64,000 bases of DNA from Clostridium thermobutyricum (GTDB lineage: Bacteria > Bacillota > Clostridia > Ch29): the NCBI GenBank assembly GCA_016841565.1, contig JAENYX010000012.1, forward strand, positions 619-64,618, read 5' to 3'. Position 1 is the stretch's first letter, and each line of letters opens with the position of its first letter. The position numbers were made by a program, and so were the translations under genes. Shown in pieces: positions 35,727-60,100 of this stretch. The notes beneath the pieces are model-generated. The model did not search any database and was not told the origin of the DNA. It saw only the letters and a program-made list of their open reading frames with translations.

Positions 35727-36284
35727 CTAATCATTCATATGTATCATTTCTGGAAAATTGGCTGTTATCTCCTTTACCAACTGACAATCTCCCGTATTCT
35801 TCATAACCGACAGCATCTCCATTATAAGAACAGGATTGGTATCAGTATTGATTTTGCCTGCTTTGAACAGCCGGTCACAGCACTGCGCTGCTCCCTGGCT
35901 GTCTCTGGTTCTGTTTTTGCAGACCAGAACTGCAGGAAGCAGTGTGTCCTCCATATCAGGCCTAAGCTCGATTATAGAATTAAGTTTTTTTAATGCCTTG
36001 TCGTATCTGGCCCTATGGTAATTTTCCTGGGCTTGTTTATACAGCCAGGCCGGCCTTTCTTTGGCCTTGCCAATCATCATTAAAGTTAAGTTTATTAAAA
36101 ACACGGCCAAACAAATGGGCAATATTATTGCAAGGGGCCCTCCGGTCCCGGCAACCCCAATAAATACTCCAAAAAAGCTCAGCCAAAGAATAATCAACTT
36201 TTGAGTGTATCCCCGGGGAATCAACTCTTCCGGCGGCAATACCGGCAGTATTGGGTTGTATCGTCCTTTTCGGGCTTTGCTCAT
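35727..36284 (-). CDS. Membrane protein with TPR-like C-terminal region
   Basis: Two TM helices followed by a helical repeat region. Start taken at MSKARKG, because the longer start falls inside repeat copy A. Confidence 0.4.
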   Translation of the reverse strand: MSKARKGRYNPILPVLPPEELIPRGYTQKLIILWLSFFGVFIGVAGTGGPLAIILPICLAVFLINLTLMMIGKAKERPAWLYKQAQENYHRARYDKALKKLNSIIELRPDMEDTLLPAVLVCKNRTRDSQGAAQCCDRLFKAGKINTDTNPVLIMEMLSVMKNTGDCQLVKEITANFPEMIHMND

Positions 36285-36292
36285 AATGCTGC

Positions 36293-36413
36293 CTCCATTA
36301 CCTGTCATTTAAGAGGGCGGAGCCCGAAGAATCTGACTTGAAAATGGACATAAGATCCTTCGCCTGGCTCAGGATGACACGTTAACAGGCGTAAAACCTT
36401 AAGCACGTTATAT
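36293..36413. repeat. ~120-bp repeat element, copy A (inverted relative to copy B at 43021..43139)
   Basis: The core CCTGTCATTTAAGAGGGCGGAGCCCGAAGAATCTGACTTGAAAATGGACATAAGATCCTTCGCCTGGCTCAGGATGACACGTTA..CTTAAGCACGTTATATA matches the reverse complement of 43021..43139. Only a handful of mismatches separate the copies. Confidence 0.85.
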
Positions 36414-39650: not shown

Positions 39651-39974
39651 TTATACTACATTTTTGCTTTTAATATGAGCCTTTTCATCATTTCCGGGGG
39701 AAAGCGGTATTCGCAATAGTTTCAGTTTCTCTTGTCTCGATAGCTGTTTTATACTATACTCTCTCTGCATTGCTTCCTTCTTTGTACCAAATGCTTCCGA
39801 ATGCCTCAATACCACCGGAAGCCTGGCCCGTGTGCATTTACCTCCCTTACCTTGGTTGTGCTGGGCCAGCCGCCTTTCAACATCGGTTGTCCACCCGGTA
39901 TACAGCGACCCGTCATTGCATTCCAGTATGTATACATAATACACCTTCCGGCACTCCTTTCCACTGTCCTTCAA
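39651..39974 (-). CDS. GIY-YIG nuclease family protein (UPF0213-like)
   Basis: ..[30 protein letters not shown].. GIY-YIG motif, about 100 aa. Confidence 0.7.
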
Positions 39975-40129
39975 ACGATGCAGGGGTTAAGAAGTTGAAA
40001 AGGAAGCAAAAGGACCTTCCCCTGCTTCCATTGACATCATATTGCACCAGTATTATTATTATATTGCACCTTTTTACATATTGTCCTTTTATAATATTAT
40101 ATCATACCGAAAATTGGAGGTAAATACAC

Positions 40130-41845: not shown

Positions 41846-42505
41846 TTATAGATTTTGCTTGAACACACCCAGCCAAGCAGCAAAGGCCAAAATGGCAATT
41901 GCTGCTGCAAATTCACTTATGCCCCTCAACCGGCTGGCCTTTGTACTCTCATTTACTCTCTCTTTCATATCCAGAACAATTTCTTCGAAATAGTATACAC
42001 TGCCAAACCTTATAAAGACCAGCTCGAAGTTTTTGCCGTTTCCCGCCCTCTGATTCATCCTGACAGAGGCATCATACTGATCCAGGAATATCTCGGTATC
42101 CATAGCATGGGGGCTTTCTTCCTTTTTTCTGTATTCCAATCCATACTTTTCCAACGTCTGAAACAGTATTGTTTCAAGGTCGGCTTTGGAAATATTGTGA
42201 ACTGTATACTTTTTACCCGTGGAAAAATTTCTGTAAAAGGCGAATATAACCAATAATAACAGTATTCCCAGTAATTTTACGGCAAGTTTTTCATCACTAT
42301 TCGTACCAAGCTCCCATATTCCAATAAAGTCATACAACAACACTGCTAAACCCGCACCTGCCGAAAAAAAGTTCAAGAGCTTGGGCTCGTGGTAAAAGTT
42401 TTTTTCCCTTCGCCTTTTGATGCCAAGGTATATACACTGTATTAGGTAGATAATGCCCATTACACGATATATAGCAAGTTTTCCGCTGTCCATTGATACA
42501 CTCAC
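41846..42505 (-). CDS. Membrane protein of unknown function
   Basis: 219 aa, 3-4 TM helices N-terminally, then a soluble C-terminal region ending in another TM helix. Confidence 0.4.
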   Translation of the reverse strand: MSVSMDSGKLAIYRVMGIIYLIQCIYLGIKRRREKNFYHEPKLLNFFSAGAGLAVLLYDFIGIWELGTNSDEKLAVKLLGILLLLVIFAFYRNFSTGKKYTVHNISKADLETILFQTLEKYGLEYRKKEESPHAMDTEIFLDQYDASVRMNQRAGNGKNFELVFIRFGSVYYFEEIVLDMKERVNESTKASRLRGISEFAAAIAILAFAAWLGVFKQNL

Positions 42506-43139: not shown

Positions 43140-43990
43140 AATGTAATACTATTAATGCGTTATATATAGGTAAAGAGGTGTAGTGCGTATTCTTAACCGG
43201 CTTTCCATTCGCACCTTTACCGTCATGAGCTGTTTGAATTAGTTTTTTATAGATATCACAGGCTGCCCGATTTGACATATTTTTTCAGCCAGGCCAATTC
43301 CCCTCCCCTGCTGTCAGGATAAAGAGTGAATTTGCATTTTTCATCCTTTCCACAAAGCGGTGCGGCCAGCCCCGCAACAAGCGGGCATATTTTTCAGGCA
43401 TCCGTGCCATGTTTCCAAGATATTGAGCCAGGATCTCTCCCTCCTGAGGATTATTGCTCTTAATGTGAATTAAAAATGAGCGGTCGGGGAAATGTTCCAA
43501 CACCTCATCCAATGAGGGCATCAGACACAAACCCTTGCCGCGGAATGGATATGTTTTCCCGTTATCTGCGGTATAGCCATATCCTATGTCAAATTCCTTT
43601 AATTCTCCATCCTGTAATCCCTTACACTGCCTGCACCATTGATCCGGTATTCAAGGTTTGAATCATTGAAAACAGCAAATTGCCCGTCCTTGGTCAGCCG
43701 TATATCAAATTCAACCATGTCGACTCCTGCCTGAAAAGCTGCTTCCATTGATGGTATGGTGTTTTACAGATAGGGATGCTCGGGTTGATATATACGTCTG
43801 GCCGTATTGGTCCCGCCCGTTATACCCTCCATGGGAAAGGTCTGGGCCAACCCCCTTTAGGCAAGAAGAAAAGGTTTTCCATCATACTTTTCAATAAACA
43901 ATGAGCTATTGCTCAAGTATATCAAGGCAAACAGAAGAGCCATGAGCCATATTATTCTTCTGTTTATTGAGTTTTTAGACATATTGGCTT
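43100..43990 (-). pseudogene. Glycerophosphodiester phosphodiesterase (GDPD) pseudogene, multiply frameshifted
   Basis: Minus-strand pieces in three frames. First a signal peptide MSKNSINRRIIWLMALLFALIYLS.., followed by a stop. Then ..MEAAFQAGVDMVEFDIRLTKDGQFAVFNDSNL.. (GDPD E-x-D / HD-like core). Then ..MPSLDEVLEHFPDRSFLIHIKS.. and a C-terminal ..LIQTAHDGKG... No single frame spans the region. Confidence 0.6.
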
Positions 43991-44368
43991 TTCTTCTAAC
44001 AACAAATCATCATTTGCTTTGAAGTTGTCGCTTCCCATTAATTTGATTGTAGCAGACTACGGCCTACTTTTCCATAGTACATGGTTCATTTTATTGCAGC
44101 CAACTCACAATGCCGGATGGCAGTAGAAGAACAGTCTACGTTGTTTTTTGTGATGTTTATTCCACAAATCCAGTAGTGAAAGTTATTTTTTATGGCAGCA
44201 GTCGGTCTGTTCCATTTGACTGCGATATTTAATTCATTATCGATAGATAAAATAATGTCTGCAATCCGTTTTACCATCTCCTCCTGTTTTGTATATCGGT
44301 ACCTTATGCTATGGAGCCGTCCGTCGGCGGCCGGTCAGACACAGTACCTGTTCCCCTGTCTTGGGAGC

Positions 44369-44420: not shown

Positions 44421-45215
44421 CTAACTTATCCTCTGTTTCAGCCTTATTTTGTCGGCCACCATTGCTATAAATTCCGAGTTGGTGGGCTTCCCTTTATCAT
44501 TATGTATGGTATACCCGAACAAATTGTTGATGGTATCCACCTTGCCTCTGCTCCATGCCACTTCAATGGCGTGCCTTATTGCTCTTTCCACCCTGCTGGA
44601 GGTTGTATTGAACTTCTTGGCTATGGAGGGGTAAAGTTCCTTTGTTACGGCGCTCAGCATTTCTATATCATTGACAACGGTTTTGATTGCCTCTCTCAGA
44701 TAGAGGTATCCCTTTATGTGGGCGGGCACCCCTATCTCGTGTATGATGTTGGTTATTTCCACATCCAGGCTCTGTCCTTCGGTAAAGTAACTTTCAGGCT
44801 GATTCTTTCTCTTTTTTTCAATGGGCACCACATTATTATCCATCATCTGTCTGATTCTTTTTATAAATATCTGCATGTCGAAGGGTTTGACAATGTAATA
44901 ATCAGCTCCCAGTGCCAATGCCCTTTGGGTTATCTTATCCTGTCCAACCGCAGACAAAACAATAATATTTGGCATATGTTCCAAATCCATGTTGTTTATT
45001 CTTTCCAATACTCCCAATCCGTCAAGATGAGGCATTATGATATCCAATACCAGAATATCCGGCTGGCAATCCTGTAGCATTTCCAGCGCCTCGAATCCAT
45101 CGTTTGCAGCACCCACCAGTTGTATGTCCTTTTCCCTGGATAGGTATTCCCCTACAATGTCGCAGAACTCTTTGTTATCGTCCGCAATCATTATCCTTAT
45201 CTTTTTTTCATTCAA
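44421..45215 (-). CDS. spo0A: Sporulation master regulator Spo0A (response regulator)
   Basis: Receiver domain (..[24 protein letters not shown]..) plus the Spo0A-specific C-terminal DNA-binding domain with the ..[15 protein letters not shown].. signature. Confidence 0.95.
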
Positions 45216-49995: not shown

Positions 49996-50814
49996 TCATG
50001 AGTGAATACGGTGAGATTCTTCTATCACCCGGTCAATCAGCAATGTCGAATCCTTCTCCAACCGGCTTTGGCCCTTGCTCCCACCTGCATATATGAGGTA
50101 TTCTATATTTCCGTCGGTCCCTGTAATGGGAGAGTATGTTACACCCCTCACTTTAAAACCTATGGAAGTAACCAATCCATATATTTTATTCACCACTTCC
50201 CTGTGTGTATCCGCGTCACGTACAATGCCCTTTTTGCCAACCTTTTCACGACCTGCTTCAAACTGAGGTTTAATAAGGGCGATTATTTCGCCCTCCGGCT
50301 TTATCAGTGTCTTTGCAACCGGCAGCACCAGCGTCAGAGAGATAAAAGCCACGTCAATCACCGCCATGTCACATGTCTCGCCAATATCCTCTGGTTTGAC
50401 ATACCTTATATTGGTACGTTCCATTACTACAACCCTGGGGTCGTTCCGGAGCTTCCAGTCAAGCTGACCGTATCCCACATCCACTGCATAAATTTTTTTT
50501 GCTCCCCTTTTCAAAAGGCAGTCGGTAAAACCACCGGTCGAAGCTCCAATGTCAATTGCGTTTTTTCCGGATACGTCAATTCGGAACAGCTCAAGGGCTT
50601 TTTCCAGCTTGAGCCCTCCCCTTCCCACGTAGGGAATGGGGTCTTTTTTTACGGATATTTCGCAGTCCTCATCCACCATGGTGCCGGCTTTGTCTACAAC
50701 CCTGCCGCCAACCGAGACCAGACCTGCCATTATTGCACCCTTGGCCCTTTCCCTGCTGGGAAATGCACCGCTATCTGCCAGGAGTATATCCAATCTTTTC
50801 TTTTTTGATGCCAC
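49996..50814 (-). CDS. tlyA: TlyA-family rRNA (cytidine-2'-O)-methyltransferase
   Basis: S4 domain plus FtsJ-like MTase (..DIGASTGGFTD..), 272 aa. Confidence 0.9.
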   Translation of the reverse strand: MASKKKRLDILLADSGAFPSRERAKGAIMAGLVSVGGRVVDKAGTMVDEDCEISVKKDPIPYVGRGGLKLEKALELFRIDVSGKNAIDIGASTGGFTDCLLKRGAKKIYAVDVGYGQLDWKLRNDPRVVVMERTNIRYVKPEDIGETCDMAVIDVAFISLTLVLPVAKTLIKPEGEIIALIKPQFEAGREKVGKKGIVRDADTHREVVNKIYGLVTSIGFKVRGVTYSPITGTDGNIEYLIYAGGSKGQSRLEKDSTLLIDRVIEESHRIHS

Positions 50815-52699
50815 TTATTTTTCCTCCTTGTACAAACTCCAACAAGCTGTAGTATATCCCGGTATCATCCAGCCCATAAATGCGGTAGAGGTTATCGGGA
50901 TGGCCATAGGTAACAAACTCGTCGGGGAACCCTAGAAGCTTTACCTTTATATCAAGTCTGTCAAGTCCCATACTGTGAATATGTTCAAGTAAATAGCTGC
51001 CGTATCCGCCTCGGACTATATTATCCTCCAGTACTGCTATTCTGTTGCAGTTATCCAATATTTCGGTTATGATGCCTTTGTCCAGGGGCTTTATAAACCT
51101 TACATTGACCACACCGGCGTTAATTCCCTTATTTTTTAGCATCCCGGCCGCGCGGCAGGCCTTTGGCAGCATATTGCCAACCGCCATTATATAAAGGTCT
51201 TTTCCCCTGCACACAAAATCCGACTTACCCTCTGTCAGCGGGCTTGCTGTATACCCGTCCACCGGCTGCCCTTCTCCCCTGGGGTATCTTACGGCGACAG
51301 GCCCTTTGCAATCAAGGGCATATTTGAGCATGCTTCTAAGCTCGCTGCAGCAACATGGAGCAAGTACCTGCAAGTTTGGAATCTGGCTCAGAAAAGATAA
51401 GTCAAAAACTCCATGATGGGTAGGCCCGTCCTGTCCCACAATGCCGGCCCTGTCTACCGCAAACACAACCGGCAGGTTTTGCAGGCAGACGTCATGAATA
51501 ATCTGGTCATAGGCCCTCTGCAGAAAAGTTGAATACACGGCAAAAACGGGTTTATTCCCTCCCCTTGCCAGCCCTGCGGCAAAGGTTACGGCGTGCTGCT
51601 CGGCTATCGCCACATCAAAGAATCTGTCGGGAAACACCCGAGCAAACTCCGAAAGACCTGTACCGTCGGCCATGGCTGCAGTTATGGCCACTATTCTGTC
51701 ATCTTCTCTGGCCAATTCGAGCATTGCCTCACCGAAAGCACAGGAAAAGCTTTTCCCTTTTCCGTTTTTAACTATCTCACCGGTCTCCACTTGAAAACAG
51801 CCCACGCCGTGAAACCTGTCGGGGTTGTCCAGGGCAGGCCGATACCCTTTGCCCTTCTTTGTTACAACATGTATCAGCACCGGCCCTTTAAGTTTCTTGG
51901 CTCTTTTCAGCACATCCTTCAATACAACCAAATCATGTCCGTCTATAGGCCCCAGGTATGTAAAGCCCAGTTCCTCAAATAACATGCTGGGAACCAGAAA
52001 ATATTTGATGGTATCCTTAGCCTTTCCTGCAAGCCTTGCCATACTGCCGCCAACCGCAGGTATGCGTTTTAAAAGACCCTCTATATCTTCTTTTACCCTG
52101 AAGTACTTGGGATTGGTCCTCATCCTGCTTAGGTATTTTGAAAGACTCCCAACGTTCTGAGCAATGGACATTTCATTCTCATTAAGCACCACCGTCATGT
52201 CTTTCTGTAAATGTCCGGCATGGTTTAAAGCTTCAAAGGCCATCCCGCCTGTCAGGGCTCCGTCTCCTATCACAGCCACCACCGAAGACTTGCCCCTTTC
52301 CAGATCCCTTGCCGAAGCAAGTCCAAGGGCGGCGGATATGGAGGTACTGCTGTGCCCCGTTCCGAATATATCGTGGGGACTTTCATCTATTCTTGGAAAT
52401 CCTGATATCCCTCCAAATTGTCTCAGTGTATCAAACTCCTTATATCTTCCTGTCAACAGCTTATGTACATAAGACTGGTGTCCCACATCCCAGACTATCT
52501 TGTCCTGTGGACTTGAATACACGCTGTGCAGTGCAATGGTCAGCTCCACAACGCCAAGATTTGACGCCAGATGTCCTCCGGTTTTTGATACCGTATTTAC
52601 TATCACGTGTCGTATCTCTCTCGCAAGAACCTTCTGCTGTAAATCGCTTAACTGCTTTATATCCTCAGGTCCCTGCAAATCCTTCATTATTTCATACAC
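50771..52699 (-). CDS. dxs: 1-deoxy-D-xylulose-5-phosphate synthase
   Basis: 642 aa with the TPP-binding ..GDGALTGG.. motif and a transketolase-like C-terminus. Its 3' end overlaps the tlyA start. Confidence 0.95.
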   Translation of the reverse strand: MYEIMKDLQGPEDIKQLSDLQQKVLAREIRHVIVNTVSKTGGHLASNLGVVELTIALHSVYSSPQDKIVWDVGHQSYVHKLLTGRYKEFDTLRQFGGISGFPRIDESPHDIFGTGHSSTSISAALGLASARDLERGKSSVVAVIGDGALTGGMAFEALNHAGHLQKDMTVVLNENEMSIAQNVGSLSKYLSRMRTNPKYFRVKEDIEGLLKRIPAVGGSMARLAGKAKDTIKYFLVPSMLFEELGFTYLGPIDGHDLVVLKDVLKRAKKLKGPVLIHVVTKKGKGYRPALDNPDRFHGVGCFQVETGEIVKNGKGKSFSCAFGEAMLELAREDDRIVAITAAMADGTGLSEFARVFPDRFFDVAIAEQHAVTFAAGLARGGNKPVFAVYSTFLQRAYDQIIHDVCLQNLPVVFAVDRAGIVGQDGPTHHGVFDLSFLSQIPNLQVLAPCCCSELRSMLKYALDCKGPVAVRYPRGEGQPVDGYTASPLTEGKSDFVCRGKDLYIMAVGNMLPKACRAAGMLKNKGINAGVVNVRFIKPLDKGIITEILDNCNRIAVLEDNIVRGGYGSYLLEHIHSMGLDRLDIKVKLLGFPDEFVTYGHPDNLYRIYGLDDTGIYYSLLEFVQGGKISGIKKEKIGYTPGR

Positions 52700-52706
52700 C
52701 TTAAGT

Positions 52707-53330
52707 TCACCGCTTTCTGCCAGTTTTTTTGTCGCTGCCCACTACCTTGATATTGGTTCTCTTATGAAAAAGGTTAAGAAACCTTCCCGTCCTGTAGGTT
52801 ATCTGGCTGGCTTTGTTAATTGCTACATTCTTCCCTATGGCTTTTCCTCCAACCGTAAGCGCCGCTATAATACCGCTGAAGAGTATACCAATGGTAGCAC
52901 CTTTCAGACCGGGATATATGGAAATAAGCCTTGCAACTATGACAGCTCCTGCCGCGCCGCTGACAATTCCACATATATCTCCTATTACATCGTTACAAAA
53001 ATTGGACACAGCTCCAGCGTTCTTGTGCAGTTCCACCGCTTCCCTTGCTCCGGGTATCCTCTGGGCGGCCATCCCGTTGAGCGGCTTGTCGTCGGAGGCT
53101 GCTACAGCTATGCCTATTATATCAAATAATATGCCGATTATTATAATTAACACCAAAATGACCAGCGCAATCCCCAACTGAAGGTTTCTCACCACCATTT
53201 CGGATAGAAAGCTGAAGGTCAGTGCCAGCAAAAATGTCCACAGAGTAATAAAAACAACCCACCTGCTTGTCTTCCTTTTTCCATTATGTTCCTTTGATCT
53301 CAATCTGCAATCCCTCGCTTTTAATTTCAA
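52707..53330 (-). CDS. Small polytopic membrane protein in the OapA (OLE-associated protein A) position; DUF21/CNNM-TM-like
   Basis: 207 aa with 4 predicted TM helices, lying between the structured RNA and dxs. This is the position OapA occupies in published ispA-OLE-oapA-dxs loci. Confidence 0.5.
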   Translation of the reverse strand: MKLKARDCRLRSKEHNGKRKTSRWVVFITLWTFLLALTFSFLSEMVVRNLQLGIALVILVLIIIIGILFDIIGIAVAASDDKPLNGMAAQRIPGAREAVELHKNAGAVSNFCNDVIGDICGIVSGAAGAVIVARLISIYPGLKGATIGILFSGIIAALTVGGKAIGKNVAINKASQITYRTGRFLNLFHKRTNIKVVGSDKKTGRKR

Positions 53331-53390
53331 TTATGTAATTAGTATAGTTACATATACTTAAATTATAGCATTATTCCAAATAGGAAAAAA

Positions 53391-53430
53391 TAATTAAAAA
53401 GCTGATAGCGTATACTATCAGCAAGTAGTT
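53391..53430 (-). terminator. Intrinsic terminator at the 3' end of the structured RNA
   Basis: Minus strand GCTGATAG-tatacg-CTATCAGC followed by TTTTTAATTATTTTTT. Confidence 0.6.
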
Positions 53431-54010
53431 TCAGGTGGCGGCATAGTGAGTAAATTTTGCGGCTTAGGTCCAGCAGGCTTTCCCAGATGAATACCAACCT
53501 GTCGCCAGGTCAGCGGTTTCCCTTTAAATTCATCTCTATCGTGTTGCCAACGATAGGGCTGGATTACCACTTAGTCCGCACTTTAATCCCCAATATGCCT
53601 CATGCGAACAGTCTAGGAGTTTTCCTCGACATATGTCTCGCTCTATAGCCTCTTTTGCAAAATGGGTTTCGAAAGCATTGGCGTCCTCCGAAGGGCCCTT
53701 CGAATTATGCCTGACAATCATCTACCCATTTCACTCAAGGCAGGCTACGCTGCAGGTTCTATCTGCAGGTTATTACCCGGTCTTTTATACCGGGTCTCCG
53801 CAGAGGGAGGGTCAACGCCTGCATGCCATTGCAGATCGCCCCCGCCTCCTTACTCCCTGAACCAACCCCCAACTGGGCGTCAGAAGCCGATCCAAAGAAC
53901 TTCATCGATGTGCCTTTTGACGGATTTTTAGCCCCGCCTTCAAGAGCGAAACGTCTGACTAGAATACTGCACCACCAACTATGTGCATATTATAACATGA
54001 GTACATGCAG
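53396..54010 (-). ncRNA. ole: Candidate OLE (ornate, large, extremophilic) RNA
   Basis: About 600 nt with no convincing ORF and GC-enriched relative to the flanks. Many short helices with GNRA-type loops. Ends in a strong terminator. Sits precisely between the ispA-side gene and an OapA-like membrane gene upstream of dxs, which is the known OLE context. Confidence 0.55.
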
Positions 54011-54023
54011 CCTACAAATCCTT

Positions 54024-54467
54024 TTAAAGCATAATATTAGCTGTTATAATACCTAAAAGAGCTCCTGCAATAACCTCAACAGGTGTATGACCAATTAGCT
54101 CCTTCAATCTCTCTTCCTTGAGCCCTTTGTGTTCAATTACGTCCATAATGATTATATTAAGTATTTCGGCCTGCTTTCCCGCCGACCTTCTGACACCGGC
54201 AGCGTCGTACATTACCACAAAGGCATAGGAAATGGCGATGGCAAATAGTGGTGTATCCCAGCCCTGCAGCATGCCGATGCCTGTTGATAAAGCCATAACA
54301 AAAGCCGAATGGGAACTGGGCATGCCTCCCGAACCAACAAAACGTCTGAAATCAAATTTTTTGTTTATTAATAAGTCAGTGAGCACCTTGGCTACCTGAG
54401 CTATGGACCAGGATACCAGCGCTATAACCAATACCCTGTTGTCCAACACCTGTGAAAATGAATTCAA
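54024..54467 (-). CDS. Divergent PAP2 family protein (DUF212/YuiD-like)
   Basis: 147 aa, 4 TM helices, ..SGGMPSSHSA.. acid-phosphatase-like motif. Confidence 0.7.
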   Translation of the reverse strand: MNSFSQVLDNRVLVIALVSWSIAQVAKVLTDLLINKKFDFRRFVGSGGMPSSHSAFVMALSTGIGMLQGWDTPLFAIAISYAFVVMYDAAGVRRSAGKQAEILNIIIMDVIEHKGLKEERLKELIGHTPVEVIAGALLGIITANIML

Positions 54468-54484: not shown

Positions 54485-55363
54485 TTAGTATTTTCTGTCC
54501 ACAAGGTAATCGGTAAGCTGTTTCAGGAATTGTGCTCTGTCGCCGAATCCTTCGAGACAGGTCTTTGCCTCATCGGTTAGTGTTTTGACCATATCCTCCG
54601 ATGCCGGAACACCCAGCAGAGATACATAGGTGGATTTGTTCCTGGAAGCATCGCTTCCGGTGCTTTTACCCATTAATTTCCGGTCGCCCGTTACATTCAA
54701 AATGTCATCCTGTATTTGAAAAGCAAGCCCAAGCTTCTTCCCAAACTCCTGCAGCTTCAAGTATTCTTCCTGACTGCACCCTGCCGCCTGGGCGCCTGCG
54801 GTAATGGATGCACAAATCAAGGCTCCTGTTTTTCTGCAGTGCAAATCATTTAAAACCTCCATGGATACCTGCCTGCCTTCGCTTTCAAGGTCAAGCACCT
54901 GACCTCCCACCATGCCCTCCACCCCCGAAGCCCGGGCAATCTCCCGTATGGCTTTCAGTCTGCCTCCCTCAAGGGGTGTTATGCTTAACATTAGTTCAAA
55001 GGCATAGTTCAATAGGCCGTCGCCTGCAAGAATGGCAATTCCCTCTCCAAAGGCTTTGTGACTGGTGGGTTTGCCTCTTCTGTAATCGTCATCATCCATG
55101 GCCGGAAGGTCATCGTGTATCAGAGAATATGTATGTATCATTTCTACCGCACAGGCCAACGGCATGACCTGCACAGGGTCTGCTGTGCAAATTTCGCATC
55201 CCGACATAACCAGTATTGGTCTCAGCCTTTTCCCGCCGGCAAAAAGACTGTATTCCATAGCCTGGTATATTATATCGGGTACGCCATCCTTTCTTTTCAT
55301 ATATTGCTGCAGAAATCTGTCCACAAATTGTTTTTTTTCAATGAGTGTTTTTTCAAAGCCCAA
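54485..55363 (-). CDS. ispA: Farnesyl diphosphate synthase (polyprenyl synthetase)
   Basis: First DDxxD-type motif (..LIHDDLPAMDDDDYRRG..), second motif ..FQIQDDILN.., GGKRLRP. Start proposed at TTG 55361-55363, 5 nt after the xseB stop, which aligns the N-terminus with other IspA sequences. The ORF-track ATG would overlap xseB by 50 nt. Confidence 0.85.
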   Translation of the reverse strand: MGFEKTLIEKKQFVDRFLQQYMKRKDGVPDIIYQAMEYSLFAGGKRLRPILVMSGCEICTADPVQVMPLACAVEMIHTYSLIHDDLPAMDDDDYRRGKPTSHKAFGEGIAILAGDGLLNYAFELMLSITPLEGGRLKAIREIARASGVEGMVGGQVLDLESEGRQVSMEVLNDLHCRKTGALICASITAGAQAAGCSQEEYLKLQEFGKKLGLAFQIQDDILNVTGDRKLMGKSTGSDASRNKSTYVSLLGVPASEDMVKTLTDEAKTCLEGFGDRAQFLKQLTDYLVDRKY

Positions 55364-55367
55364 AGTC

Positions 55368-55601
55368 TTAGTCCCCTTCCAATTCAAGGTCGAATTTCTC
55401 CACCTTGCCTCCATCATCCTGCATTATTACCTTTACTTTGCCTTCTGCCTGATCCAGCTTTGCTGTACAGTGGCGGTACATTCTTACCCCTTCTTCAAAA
55501 ACCTCCAAACATTTGTCCAGATCCAGTTCACCATCTTCCAGCTGCTTTATAATTTCCTCCATCCTGTCCATGGCTTCTTCAAAGCTTGGTTCCCGTCCCA
55601 T
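55368..55601 (-). CDS. xseB: Exodeoxyribonuclease VII small subunit
   Basis: 77 aa helical hairpin protein, ..FEEAMDRMEEIIKQLE... Confidence 0.9.
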   Translation of the reverse strand: MGREPSFEEAMDRMEEIIKQLEDGELDLDKCLEVFEEGVRMYRHCTAKLDQAEGKVKVIMQDDGGKVEKFDLELEGD

Positions 55602-56833: not shown

Positions 56834-57790
56834 TTATTGTCCCGAATGTGCCTGCCTGTATTTTTCAAGTGCAATCAGCGCTGCACCCACCGCATTGTCG
56901 CTGCAGTATCCGGGCTCCGGAAAATACAACTTACAGCTTAAGCCGGCTTCAAGATGCTCTCTTATATATTTATTTGACGATACCCCGCCCACCATAAGCA
57001 CATGCCCTATATGCAGTCTGGCGCAGGCATCCGATACTATGCTCTCAAGACCCAGGGCAATACACTTAAACACCGCCCGGGCAATCTGCGCTTTATCCTC
57101 CCCCGCCTCCACCATCCGCTTTGTACGGGTCTCAGGACCCGAAAAGCTAAGGGTTGACCCCTCGGCAAAACAGGGAATTTTCATGGCTTTGCTGTTATCA
57201 GATTGGCCTGCCAGCCTTTCCATCTGCAGCCCGCTGGGAAAGGGCAGCCCCATAGCCACACCCACCCTGTCCACAAACTGCCCGGCGCTTATATCACCGG
57301 TGCCGCCGACTATCTTTATATCAAAGTCGGTTCCCCTTCTGACGGTCTCCAGCAGCTCGGTTGTCCCTCCCGACAGATGCACCGTTAGAAATCTGTCGCT
57401 TTTGGGTCCCCCTGCAGACCACAACCCTGCCATCAGGTGATTTTCCTGGTGGGTCGTCTCAAAGAATGGTACCCCTGCCACCCCTGCGGCCAACCTTGCC
57501 GCATTCTCCCCCACCGTAAACACCGGCATATAGGACTGGGGCAGCGGCCTGGGTTTAACCGATGCTGCCGCAGCCATAATATTGAGATGACCTGATAATT
57601 TGTATAGTTTGTCTGAAATGGCCGATATGTTTCTTATGTGCTGAAATACCCCTTCCGACTGTCTCAGACCTCTGCTTCCCTTGTTTACCTCCAGAACGGT
57701 TCTGTGGTCAAGCACCAGACACCCCTCGCCATTCACTGCCGCAAAGGAAGTGGTATAACAGCTGGTATCAAACCCGATATATGTATCCAT
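56834..57790 (-). CDS. Kae1/TsaD (YgjD) family protein, short paralog
   Basis: ASKHA fold. N-terminal ..GFDTSCYTTS.., metal-binding H-x-x-x-H (..THQENH..), and C-terminal ..GGVSSNKYIR.. and ..YCSDNAVGAALIA... 318 aa. Confidence 0.6.
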   Translation of the reverse strand: MDTYIGFDTSCYTTSFAAVNGEGCLVLDHRTVLEVNKGSRGLRQSEGVFQHIRNISAISDKLYKLSGHLNIMAAAASVKPRPLPQSYMPVFTVGENAARLAAGVAGVPFFETTHQENHLMAGLWSAGGPKSDRFLTVHLSGGTTELLETVRRGTDFDIKIVGGTGDISAGQFVDRVGVAMGLPFPSGLQMERLAGQSDNSKAMKIPCFAEGSTLSFSGPETRTKRMVEAGEDKAQIARAVFKCIALGLESIVSDACARLHIGHVLMVGGVSSNKYIREHLEAGLSCKLYFPEPGYCSDNAVGAALIALEKYRQAHSGQ

Positions 57791-59512: not shown

Positions 59513-60100
59513 TTACTTTGGATAAACCTTCACCCTGAATGCGGATACCCCCAGGACCGTCTGTACCGCTTCGGTAAGCCGCTCAATTACCACCGGGCTC
59601 TCTGCGCCTTCTGCAACTACTATTACTCCCAACACCTCCGGCATGACCTCTTTTACTATGAATGGCTGGTCTTGTGCACTGCTGCTGTTTTTAAGAACCA
59701 CCTTTTTGTCTGTGCTGTTTTGCATAACCGTTCTTGTTCCCCCGTCTCCATCCCTTTCATCGGTCTGGCTTTCGGATTCCACTGTGTTTAGCGCCGGAAC
59801 AACCTCTTTGCCCGCCTTCAGGGTTATCATTACCGAGACCTCTCCAACTCCTGCGATTTGTTGCAGTATACTTTTAAGCTTGCTTTCCAGTTGCTCCTCG
59901 TACGTCACCTGGGAAATTGATTGTCTATTTAATTGTATGTCTGTTCCCTCAATACTATTTCTATTCTGTTTGCTATTGGTAAAAAAAGTACCCGAGGAAA
60001 TAACCAGTATGGCTGCAACCAAAGATACGATTAATAGGTTCTGAAGCAATTTTTTGGTACCCATATTGTACAGTTTTTCCTTAATTGTATTAAAATCCAT
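59513..60100 (-). CDS. spoIIIAG: Stage III sporulation protein AG
   Basis: 195 aa, N-terminal TM helix plus C-terminal ring-building motif domain. Operon position. Confidence 0.8.
   Translation of the reverse strand: MDFNTIKEKLYNMGTKKLLQNLLIVSLVAAILVISSGTFFTNSKQNRNSIEGTDIQLNRQSISQVTYEEQLESKLKSILQQIAGVGEVSVMITLKAGKEVVPALNTVESESQTDERDGDGGTRTVMQNSTDKKVVLKNSSSAQDQPFIVKEVMPEVLGVIVVAEGAESPVVIERLTEAVQTVLGVSAFRVKVYPK

Follow-up and report, generated by a model that had tools for sequence, protein, structure and literature searches.

A full-length OLE RNA gene with an adjacent OapA gene in the isoprenoid, DNA-repair and sporulation cluster of a Clostridia-like genome

The stretch of DNA analyzed here (64 kb, hereafter the window) carries, on its minus strand, a full-length ole gene in a region free of credible open reading frames (ORFs), with the gene of the membrane protein OapA directly downstream and a cluster typical of OLE carriers around them; we assign this reading a probability of about 97%. 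Few non-coding RNAs of bacteria are as large and as well conserved as OLE (ornate, large, extremophilic) RNA. The gene is an ordinary member of this known RNA class, found where ole genes normally lie, and not a new type of element, nothing found at the locus changes existing knowledge of the class, and no result ran contrary to the identification as OLE and OapA. Two outcomes had been set beforehand as refuting this reading, a missing match to the OLE covariance model and a lack of OapA similarity in the neighboring protein; both were checked, and the OLE/OapA reading survived.

A covariance-model search of the window matched Rfam model RF01071 at 53419..53991 (-) with 495.5 bits (E 2.6e-143), where the gathering threshold is 50. 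The match is not truncated and extends over model positions 1-616 of 616, which bears out the OLE call that a sequence-only reading had made from the letters of the DNA. OLE is the sole Rfam family in the 64 kb, everything else being weaker than E 0.1, and the score falls inside the range of 471-558 bits given by the OLE RNAs of named species (all 11 of the 11 related loci that were scored). More than 2,800 representatives of the family have been reported (PMC11332333). Between the stop codon of the upstream DUF212 gene (54024) and the membrane-protein ORF lie ~690 nt in which the ORFs of either strand are short and overlap one another, the longest having 89 aa, and the GC content is 0.50 in the Rfam match versus 0.445 in the whole window; the absence of credible ORFs and the GC enrichment had both been recognized correctly in the earlier reading.

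The structured core of the RNA spans 543 nt from the 5′ GGUGG to the 3′ CCACC of a closing helix (53434..53976 (-)). Two features define the class, an ornate secondary structure of ~20 or more helices kept by compensatory changes, and near-invariant nucleotide blocks amounting to ~25% of positions, and both were found here. When the structure is projected onto 69 OLE sequences, pairing reaches 87.4% compared with 40-46% in slid controls, changes on both sides of a pair occur at 112 of 145 pairs in 20 helices, and the covariation score of 0.421 (controls 0.10-0.13) was reached by none of 500 shuffles. The closing helix is 95.7% paired in the same sequences, with four of its five pairs covarying; a GCA/UGC extension of this helix was rejected, as it clashes with the Rfam P12 stem. 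The invariant or near-invariant columns of the alignment are likewise present, e.g. GCAGUAUUCUAGUCAG, CUAAAAAU, GUAGCCUGCCUUGAG, UUAAAGGGAAAC and GACCUAAGCCGCAAAAUUUAC, while at model positions 424-435 a small hairpin has shrunk to 2 base pairs.

The experimentally studied representative, the OLE RNA of Halalkalibacterium (Bacillus) halodurans C-125, belongs to the same Rfam family and has the same conserved blocks, and all mapped partner sites (OapB at P13, OapC at J4a/5 and J5/6, bS21 at P6) are present here at the sequence level. In H. halodurans, the OapC k-turn is formed by the strands flanking P5 (PMC9723947). The window RNA has a P5 region with conserved sequence blocks (53848..53912 (-)), whose strands J4a/5 (CACAUCGAUGAAG, 53900..53912 (-)) and J5/6 (GGGAGUAAGG, 53848..53857 (-)) make up a predicted OapC k-turn site, the J4a/5 strand being shared with H. 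halodurans. J5/6 contains one U (GUAAGG), whereas a two-U form is seen in Bacilli; an anomaly was considered for the single U and dismissed, since this is the usual form in the clostridial loci examined. P6 (53803..53851 (-)) pairs an SD-like AAGGAGG (53845..53851 (-)) with an ASD-like CCCUCCCUC (53803..53811 (-)), and compensatory changes accompany a pairing of 90.6% in helix 4 and 99.4% in helix 5; the same SD/ASD mimic occurs in H. halodurans OLE, where the bS21 site was mapped to P6 (PMC12054373). The P13 hairpin, CUAUCG-U-UG-GCAA-CA-CGAUAG (53536..53556 (-)), is closed by a GNRA tetraloop with a lone bulged U two pairs beneath it, and its stem (helix 17) shows both-side changes at seven of eight pairs. 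This layout matches that of H. halodurans P13, in which a bulged U498 is followed by U499 and G500 and then by a GUGA loop (PMC7936274), and P13 is accordingly laid out as a predicted OapB-binding site. A GCGA tetraloop closes P14.1 (53493..53514 (-); helix 20, 89.7% paired), and such a loop on P14.1 has been described as a weak secondary OapB site (PMC7936274); GNRA-like loops, as remarked on in the earlier reading, are present in the GCAA of P13 and the GCGA of P14.1. Neither oapB (KOW) nor oapC (L7Ae) was found among the small ORFs scanned within the window.

Dimer contacts of OLE have been described in cryo-EM structures (PMC12265935), which include partial structures of the C. acetobutylicum and C. 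botulinum RNA dimers, and the elements of these dimers can be matched in the window by the published description. They comprise a hairpin with the A-rich loop CUAAAAAU (53919..53938 (-)), the P5.1 loop GACGCCCAGU (53872..53881 (-)), the P6.1 loop CAAUGGCAUG (53822..53831 (-)) and a palindromic P9 loop. The A-rich loop is invariant in the 69 sequences, with helix 2 being 99.8% paired, and by our own assignment the hairpin corresponds to the P4 dimerization loop. P9 is a long arm (53646..53748 (-)) with a GGGCCC loop (53690..53701 including flanks), and its span of 75 nt compares with a median of 79; the palindrome reads GAGCUC in three other loci (L026, L045 and L075), which keeps its self-complementarity. 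The P9-P9 kissing loop is a dimer contact in the cryo-EM work (PMC12265935), and by analogy the GGGCCC loop is a predicted kissing-loop contact here.

In the window RNA, P7 and P8 are compact (together 53750..53794 (-)), and their model positions are mostly deleted in the cmscan alignment. P7 consists of CCCGGU-AUAAAAG-ACCGGG (53776..53794 (-)) and P8 of CUGCAG-AUAGAAC-CUGCAG (53750..53768 (-)). Together they span 46 nt, close to the family minimum (45-173 nt, median 68, in 66 loci), and the base of P7 covaries in the clade as CCCGG/CCGGG, CCUGG/CCAGG and CCCCG/CGGGG. Both helices are much shorter than in H. halodurans and compact relative to the C. acetobutylicum and C. botulinum RNAs, in which P7 and P8 make no dimer contacts. 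Shortened P7 and P8 also occur in OLE 'variant 1' (TANB77), described together with 'variant 2' (RF39) by Fernando and Breaker 2024. In contrast to these reduced variants, P9 has normal length here, the OapB site of P13 is intact, and P7 and P8 both exist. Assignment to 'variant 1' was therefore rejected, and these features, together with a score equal to those of full-length OLEs from cultured species, place the RNA in the full-length class.

At the 3′ end, the terminator scan returned an intrinsic-terminator-like hairpin, GCUGAUAGU-AUAC-GCUAUCAGC (53422..53401 (-); 9 pairs, 4-nt loop), directly followed on its 3′ side by the U tract UUUUUAAUUAUUUUUU (53400..53385 (-)). The stem contains four G-C pairs among the nine, the fold energy is -11.7 kcal/mol, and the whole (53385..53422 (-)) fits the description of an intrinsic (factor-independent) terminator; it is the predicted terminator, at which transcription of ole would stop. 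A terminal minus-strand hairpin with a U tract had already been pointed out at 53391..53430; the element is real, and its limits shift to 53422..53385. In H. halodurans, by comparison, 3′ processing has been reported (PMC11332333), whereas here the 3′ end would be set by a terminator with a conserved stem.

The stem sequence (GCUGAUAG/CUAUCAGC) recurs in many clostridial OLE loci. A motif-anchored scan of 75 loci located GCTGATAG, with at most one mismatch, within 70 nt past the OLE 3′ anchor in 45 of them, a cruder scan that required at least 4 Ts having given 19 of 54. Stem identity is 96-98%, as against 41% in the 12 nt upstream, and the OapA proteins of the loci sharing the hairpin are only ~45-50% identical, while loop and flanks drift. 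Changes within the stem are confined to A-U, G.U or G-C replacements, with pairing kept on the ole strand. The hairpin is absent from the Bacilli loci sampled. That it is exclusive to OLE was rejected: among the metagenome matches listed, 20 of 120 exact ones follow OLE, and the others are terminators at scattered sites. We found no mention of the hairpin in the OLE literature covered, which did not extend to the original accounts of OLE 3′ ends. We tentatively raise the possibility, doubtful as it is, that GCUGAUAG-loop-CUAUCAGC plus Us is more than a generic terminator, namely a 3′ module with a specific sequence, shared by the OLE genes of clostridial and tissierellial bacteria and missing from the Rfam model. 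As such, it might be a deliberately leaky terminator or, alternatively, a processing or stability element, either of which could fix a high ratio of OLE to oapA mRNA; it might also be a protein-binding site.

The same inverted repeat, GCTGATAGT...GCTATCAGC, could instead be a DNA operator at which a dimeric regulator controls the oapA promoter, given that the repeat is almost perfectly palindromic, that it precedes the -10 element of oapA by ~30 nt and that its sequence is conserved across families. The half-site spacing, however, varies from 5 to 10 nt, which a hairpin loop tolerates and a dimeric DNA binder does not. Stem positions outside Watson-Crick pairing are G.U on the OLE strand and A/C mismatches on the opposite one, the A-U and G-C replacements are compensatory, a T-run follows most copies, and most loci that carry the repeat have no downstream promoter. 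We regard the operator as unlikely and retain the RNA hairpin.

Upstream, a predicted ole promoter was read from the sequence at 53989..54017 (-). It combines a weak -35-like TTGTAG (54017..54012; three of six positions match), a 17-nt spacer that contains the TG of an extended -10 (53997..53996), and a -10 TATAAT (53994..53989), and it would place the start near 53984..53982, 6-8 nt ahead of the GGUGG block. In an alignment of seven clade sequences, CATGTTATAAT and TTTG are invariant and the spacer is variable, and TGnTAnAAT precedes the GGUGGUGCAG block by 15-49 nt (mostly ~20 nt) in 38 of 54 OLE loci. In H. halodurans, a proximal ole promoter, just before the first helix, has been shown experimentally (PMC3413148). 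We infer from these patterns that ole has an extended -10 promoter of its own. A second predicted promoter, the extended -10 TGCTATAAT (53362..53370 (-)), precedes oapA; its -10 element is invariant as ATGnTATAAT in the seven-sequence alignment, and it occurs in 8 of 8 clade members and in 5 of 67 other loci, which points to a clade-specific oapA promoter. The promoter scan listed neither of the two because of its rule of a 4-of-6 match.

Under the proposed arrangement, transcription of ole would begin at a sigma-A-type promoter of its own, with an extended -10, just past the DUF212 stop codon, and the transcript would end at the hairpin and U tract, yielding an RNA of roughly 585-600 nt. Expression of oapA, and probably of dxs too, would start from the second, clade-specific extended -10 promoter, with a weak TTG start codon for OapA; the separate promoter and the weak codon would together permit far more RNA than protein. 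Since it immediately precedes oapA in the same orientation, the RNA might also be read as a cis-acting, riboswitch-like leader of an oapA-dxs mRNA, all the more as many related loci leave too little room between ole and oapA for a separate promoter and some co-transcription has been reported in H. halodurans (PMC3413148). In the clade, however, ole is closed by the hairpin and U tract and a conserved extended -10 precedes oapA; in H. halodurans the RNA is discrete, very stable and abundant, and made from its own promoter (PMC3413148); and ~600 nt with ~20 helices goes far past any known leader. A leader is thus very improbable, and the RNA is better viewed as an independent, stable OLE RNA.

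The gene directly downstream, across a gap of ~130 nt, encodes a protein of 198 aa (52707..53303 (-)), with a TTG start (53303..53301) preceded by the ribosome-binding site GAGGG (53316..53312). It had been delimited as a 207-aa ORF starting at 53330, a start that is probably wrong, because the homologues have 198 aa and their aligned start is the TTG with GAGGG ahead of it. A DxxxD motif, which CNNM domains lack, is among the published OapA criteria (PMC11332333); here, D105-V-I-G-D109 lies inside the invariant NFCNDVIGDIxGIxSG, and both aspartates are invariant in alignments of 18 and 34 sequences. There are four hydrophobic segments (16-34, 45-63, 106-124 and 138-156), the AF2 model has long helices at 8-39, 43-69, 96-129 and 135-163, and the termini are rich in K/R. 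A conserved proline is characteristic of CNNM domains and absent from OapA proteins; the prolines of this protein stand at positions 74, 84 and 131. Of 77 homologue loci with sufficient upstream sequence, all 77 have an ole gene directly ahead of oapA. NCBIfam has no model naming the protein (198 or 207 aa), and a PDB sequence search returned no OapA relative (lone chance match, E 0.7). Judged by its sequence, the protein agrees with the published OapA criteria tested, as the candidate OapA of the earlier reading.

The same reading had also seen a DUF21/CNNM-like look in this protein. The similarity is present and sub-threshold (20.7 bits versus a Pfam cut-off of 28.4; E 3.6e-4), a published property of OapA proteins (PMC11332333). 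It might suggest an ordinary CNNM/DUF21 Mg2+ exporter of the MpfA/CorC type that neighbors OLE by chance, for which the titles of some database homologues ('CBS domain containing-hemolysin-like' or 'CorB') and the best structural matches, CorB and CorC, could also be cited. Unlike the CNNM Mg2+ transporters MpfA, CorB and CorC, however, the protein ends after the transmembrane region at 198 aa, with the CBS pair and the CorC_HlyC domain both absent from the Pfam search; it has the DxxxD motif and four long hydrophobic helices, not three; and it is obligately paired with OLE. We consider a chance CNNM neighbor most unlikely and favor OapA. A published anticorrelation would predict that MpfA is lacking in this OLE carrier. 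The two readings may overlap in mechanism, though not in family, as the literature speculates that OapA moves metal ions. Finally, that the region is a decayed protein-coding gene with incidental helices, as its ORFs of 44-89 aa on both strands could suggest, is practically negligible in view of the full-length covariance match and the compensatory changes, the conserved blocks without a codon-like pattern, the overlap of the short ORFs with one another on both strands, and the lack of any in-frame protein homologue seen over the region.

Pfam and NCBIfam assignments confirm the previously proposed order spoIVB-recN-argR-nadK-tlyA-dxs-oapA-ole-DUF212-ispA-xseB-xseA, and further members and domains assigned in the cluster are Spo0A and a TlyA-type FtsJ/S4 methyltransferase. 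Directly downstream of oapA lies dxs (1-deoxy-D-xylulose-5-phosphate synthase; 50771..52699 (-); TIGR00204, 794.7 bits); in 56 of 81 loci, no more than 300 nt separate the two genes. The upstream flank is formed by ispA (farnesyl diphosphate synthase; 54485..55417 (-); NF045485 FPPsyn, 362.5 bits, cut-off 275; Pfam polyprenyl_synt, E 2e-59). Between ispA and ole stands a gene for a DUF212/divergent PAP2 membrane protein (54024..54467 (-)), matched by PF02681 at 177.1 bits versus 26.5 (E 2e-52; profile positions 2-125 of 126) and named by no NCBIfam model. H. halodurans shares oapA directly downstream of ole in an ispA...dxs cluster and differs from the window in this DUF212 gene, whose placement between ispA and ole is a common arrangement (35 of 61 related loci). 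A literature search on DUF212, divergent PAP2 and yuiD returned nothing relevant to OLE, and the terms are absent from Fernando and Breaker 2024 and its supplement. The synteny xseA-xseB-ispA-(DUF212)-ole-oapA-dxs-tlyA-...-recN is conserved across related loci, and the neighborhood is the isoprenoid, DNA-repair and sporulation cluster typical of OLE carriers. Hosts of OLE are Bacillota, typically anaerobic or extremophilic ones. The window also contains spo0A, spoIVB and spoIIIA genes, and the closest loci are labeled Bacillota or Clostridia MAGs, which together indicate a spore-forming Bacillota host.

OLE is characterized as an abundant and stable RNA of ~600 nt that resides at the membrane in an RNP, and OapA as a cooperative binder that brings the RNA there. 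By analogy with published studies of the H. halodurans and Clostridium RNAs (PMC12265935, PMC7936274, PMC9723947, PMC12054373, PMC3413148), the RNA would dimerize. It would be tethered to the membrane, and may span it, via the four-helix, CNNM-like OapA, and would recruit the small RNA-binding proteins OapB, OapC and bS21, helping the cell through stresses that include cold, alcohols, excess Mg2+ and poor carbon sources. The locus represents an uncultured, spore-forming, Clostridia-like lineage with a complete OLE system, in which very short P7 and P8 stand beside intact dimerization loops and predicted OapB, OapC and bS21 sites. Current models picture OLE as an RNA dimer that spans the membrane, and any natural variant with well-defined limits therefore helps to tell which of its parts can be spared. 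The locus also illustrates cleanly how ole can form a unit of its own from predicted promoter to predicted terminator, while oapA has a second predicted promoter, a layout that would make it a convenient template for expression constructs.

The locus considered here (window 52707..54467) carries two ORFs on its minus strand, of 147 aa (54024..54467) and 207 aa (52707..53330). In the roughly 690 nt between them, the ORFs on either strand overlap one another and do not exceed 89 aa; this stretch reaches 50% G+C against 44.5% for the window, in line with the ORF-free, GC-enriched stretch described by the sequence-only reading. A cmscan search against Rfam 15 returned a single match, the OLE RNA family RF01071, at 53419..53991 on the minus strand, with 495.5 bits (gathering score 50; E 2.6e-143) and an untruncated alignment to model positions 1-616 of 616. 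This score is typical of the family: Rfam scores of 471-558 bits were obtained for 11 related loci, among them those of Alkaliphilus transvaalensis, Geosporobacter ferrireducens, Acetobacterium paludosum and Fictibacillus solisalsi. Elsewhere in the 64-kb window, no other Rfam family was found at its gathering score or at E 0.1 with relaxed filters, and no tRNAs were found. With a probability of about 0.97, we regard the locus as an OLE RNA gene (ole) accompanied by oapA, the gene for its membrane partner OapA. The full-length covariance match and the OapA criteria detailed below thereby support the identity proposed from sequence inspection.

When the Rfam consensus structure was projected on the window, 131 of 142 pairs were canonical. 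To this structure a 5′-GGUGG/CCACC-3′ closing helix was added before pairs were counted across 69 OLE sequences aligned with MAFFT (the window and 68 genome loci). Standard pairs occupied 87.4% of cells, compared with 40-46% when the 3′ partners were slid by 1-3 columns, and both sides changed at 112 of 145 pairs, giving a covariation score of 0.421 versus 0.10-0.13 in the slid versions; none of 500 shuffles reached the observed pairing or covariation values. Only P7 and distal P9 paired weakly, both being length-variable helices where the MAFFT alignment is unreliable. A decayed protein gene, for which the short ORFs might speak, is excluded by the covariance-model match and by covariation across the 69 sequences.

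The structured core of the RNA extends on the minus strand from GGUGG (53976..53972) to CCACC (53438..53434). Cryo-EM of OLE dimers has defined four contacts (PMC12265935), and the sequence elements for all four occur on this strand: the hairpin with the A-rich loop CUAAAAAU (within 53919..53938), the P5.1 loop GACGCCCAGU (53872..53881), the P6.1 loop CAAUGGCAUG (53822..53831) and the palindromic P9 loop GGGCCC (within 53690..53701). Comparison of the P9 loop (alignment A4, columns about 415-425) showed that GAGCUC replaces GGGCCC, with self-complementarity kept, in three loci (L026:1538-2135, L045:5388-5986 and L075:5380-5983), and that several further loci retain a GGCC core with altered flanks (for example UAGGCCUA in L023; UUGGCCAA in L058, L068 and L078). 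At the level of sequence, these changes match what a P9-P9 kissing-loop homodimer would predict. The GNRA-like loops noted on first inspection are GCAA on P13 and GCGA, which caps P14.1. P13 (CUAUCG-U-UG-GCAA-CA-CGAUAG, 53536..53556, minus strand) has a GNRA tetraloop and, two pairs beneath it, one bulged U, the same layout as U498/U499-G500/GUGA of B. halodurans, which is the binding site of OapB there (PMC7936274). In sequence, J4a/5 (CACAUCGAUGAAG) and J5/6 (GGGAGUAAGG) correspond to the k-turn strands described for OapC (PMC9723947). In P6, an SD-like AAGGAGG paired to CCCUCCCUC forms the SD/ASD mimic, the element that binds bS21 in H. halodurans (PMC12054373).

The window OLE departs from the Rfam consensus at three points. 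P7 and P8 both exist as hairpins and are very short, each with a 6-bp stem and a 7-nt loop, spanning together 46 nt (range 45-173, median 68, in 66 loci); the base of P7 covaries inside the clade of the window's closest relatives. J5/6 contains one U instead of two, the one-U form being the usual one among the sampled clostridial loci and the UU form occurring mainly in Bacilli. Only two pairs remain of the small hairpin at model positions 424-435. Fernando and Breaker (PMC11332333) describe reduced variants 1 and 2; a P9 of normal length (75 nt, median 79) and an intact OapB site separate this RNA from both and place it in the "full-length" class.

To characterize the downstream membrane protein, OapA criteria were taken from PMC11332333 and PMC12265935 and each was checked separately. 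The DxxxD motif is represented by D105 and D109 inside the invariant block NFCNDVIGDIxGIxSG, and a second invariant block, TVGGKAxGK, is also present. Hydrophobic segments span residues 16-34, 45-63, 106-124 and 138-156, both termini are K/R-rich, and AF2 predicts four long helices (pLDDT 79, pTM 0.69). The CNNM family PF01595 matches at 20.7 bits, under the 28.4 cut-off, and Pfam detected no CBS or CorC domains; the DUF21/CNNM-like appearance remarked on earlier is a known property of OapA and offers no rival reading. A homologue search retrieved 6,574 relatives, most of them unnamed or called CNNM or DUF21. The closest ones have a length of 198 aa, and the nearest of all, at 99% identity, is from the public NCBI MAG GCA_016841135.1. 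Position agrees as well, with oapA directly downstream of ole in 11/11 loci by Rfam and 77/81 by nhmmer; the four exceptions are contigs cut about 100 nt or less from oapA, leaving 77/77 with enough sequence. Motif, four predicted transmembrane helices, weak CNNM match and position thus all agree with the proposed OapA identity. The longest-ORF start, TTG 53330 (207 aa), is probably not used. The clade alignment indicates a start at TTG 53303..53301, preceded by GAGGG at 53316..53312, and the 27 nt upstream in the longest-ORF call are not conserved as coding sequence, so that oapA is taken as 52707..53303; this non-ATG start is common to the clade.

Pfam and NCBIfam confirmed the proposed gene order on one flank (Spo0A, SpoIVB, RecN, ArgR, NAD kinase, TlyA-type S4/FtsJ methyltransferase and Dxs) and on the other (DUF212, a divergent PAP2 family, then FPP synthase IspA, XseB and XseA); NusB, Asp23 and the spoIIIA operon lie farther upstream. 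A tblastn comparison of window proteins with 81 loci recovered the conserved order xseA-xseB-ispA-(DUF212)-ole-oapA-dxs-tlyA-(nadK)-argR-recN. DUF212 occurs between ispA and ole in 35 of the 61 loci with both flanks, in Alkaliphilus, Natronincola, Geosporobacter, Thermotalea, Marinisporobacter and the window's clade, and is missing from this position in the Bacilli and Tissierellaceae loci. Given this frequency and spread of genera, its placement is a common arrangement and no insertion peculiar to this genome. In related loci, the DUF212 stop typically falls 45-50 nt ahead of the OLE GGUGG block. A membrane PAP2-like phosphatase beside FPP synthase suggests that its substrate may be an isoprenoid diphosphate; the OLE literature examined yielded no link between DUF212 and OLE, nor mention of DUF212 as a neighbour of ole. 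OLE-oapA pairs also appeared on contigs labelled as Actinomycetota MAGs (L026, L045, L056, L075 and L076) or Desulfovibrionaceae (L043), and the five Actinomycetota-labelled loci all lack the usual neighbours ispA, dxs, tlyA and recN. In the literature, such non-Bacillota occurrences are ascribed to transfer or binning errors.

A promoter for ole is predicted 7 nt after the DUF212 stop (54017..53989), with TTGTAG and TATAAT separated by 17 nt and a TG extension. Across seven clade members TTTG and CATGTTATAAT do not vary, in contrast to the drifting spacer. Of 54 OLE loci, 38 have TGnTAnAAT upstream of the GGUGGUGCAG block, at a distance of 15-49 nt (about 20 nt in most). The prediction agrees with the proximal promoter verified by experiment for ole in B. 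halodurans, where 5′ ends map near the first helix (PMC3413148).

At the other end, ole finishes in a terminator-like hairpin of nine pairs with a 4-nt loop (53422..53401, minus strand) followed by UUUUUAAUUAUUUUUU, close to the hairpin and U-tract first placed at 53391..53430; the whole feature (53385..53422) has the stem GCUGAUAG/CUAUCAGC and a loop that differs between loci. Of 75 loci, 45 have GCTGATAG, with no more than one mismatch, in the 70 nt that follow the OLE 3′ anchor, usually at 20-28 nt; these 45 loci span Clostridia and Tissierellia, and the Bacilli loci sampled lack the hairpin. In 31 loci the exact hairpin occurs a single time, at this position only. Among 43 loci retrieved with a relaxed pattern, arm identity is 96-98%, a value conditional on that search pattern, versus 41% for the 12 nt upstream, and loop length ranges from 5 to 10 nt. 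Stem changes are few and leave pairing on the OLE strand intact (pair 1: G-C in 38 loci, A-U in 4, G.U in 1; pair 7: A-U in 37, G.U in 4, G-C in 2). Both the varying distance between the arms and the G.U-type substitutions favour an RNA hairpin over a DNA operator. In metagenomes, the exact hairpin plus TTT occurs in at least 120 stretches; 20 of the 120 matches listed lie directly after OLE, and the other 100 in scattered unrelated contexts, where no upstream ORF cluster is shared by more than four. The sequence is therefore strongly enriched at OLE 3′ ends, not exclusive to them. It is absent from the Rfam model and we found no mention of it in the part of the OLE literature covered, so no priority is claimed. 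Within the window, the 8-mer GCTGATAG occurs eight times (1911, 7602, 9924, 15077, 34576, 47856, 53401 and 53415) versus 1.5 expected from shuffles, 0 of 100 reaching eight; two copies are the ole hairpin arms and the rest lie in coding regions, where codon usage may account for them.

Downstream of this hairpin and before oapA, all eight clade members carry an extended -10 element, TGCTATAAT (53370..53362, minus strand), and a conserved AT-rich leader, UAUAUGUAAnnAUACUAAU, with a short AGUAUA/UAUACU inverted repeat (53304..53370, minus strand). Both are rare elsewhere (the element in 5 of 67 other loci), and in many other loci the ole-oapA spacer is too short for a promoter. Within the clade, ole would thus form a self-contained promoter-to-terminator unit and oapA would have its own promoter and TTG start; outside it, expression of oapA probably relies on read-through past the hairpin. 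Either layout would leave the RNA in large excess over the protein, which matches the modest oapA mRNA response reported for B. halodurans (PMC3413148).

Some other window features were recorded. A 318-aa ORF between xseA and nusB (56834..57790, minus strand) has a modest TsaD/Kae1-family match (84 bits) and weak FGGY_C and HypF_C_2 matches; within the conserved cluster it could represent a divergent paralogue of the Kae1 type. ORFs 59513..60100, 41846..42505, 35727..36308, 39770..40123 and 43285..43530 had no Pfam match at E limits of 0.001 or 0.01; the 195-aa ORF flanked by spoIIIAH and spoIIIAF is, from its position, presumably spoIIIAG. Just downstream of the stop of spo0A (44421..45215, minus strand), the 661-nt stretch 43531..44191 contains no ORF of at least 70 aa and no Rfam match even at E 0.1.

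OLE has been on record since 2006, and the curated Rfam model detects this copy at once. More than 2,800 representatives have been reported in GTDB species (PMC11332333). As an ordinary full-length member in its expected context, the locus belongs to an already known class, and this instance alone does not make the open question of OLE more testable. Its additions are minor: a corrected oapA start, limits for the promoter and terminator, a count of how often DUF212 lies between ispA and ole, and a conserved 3′ hairpin.
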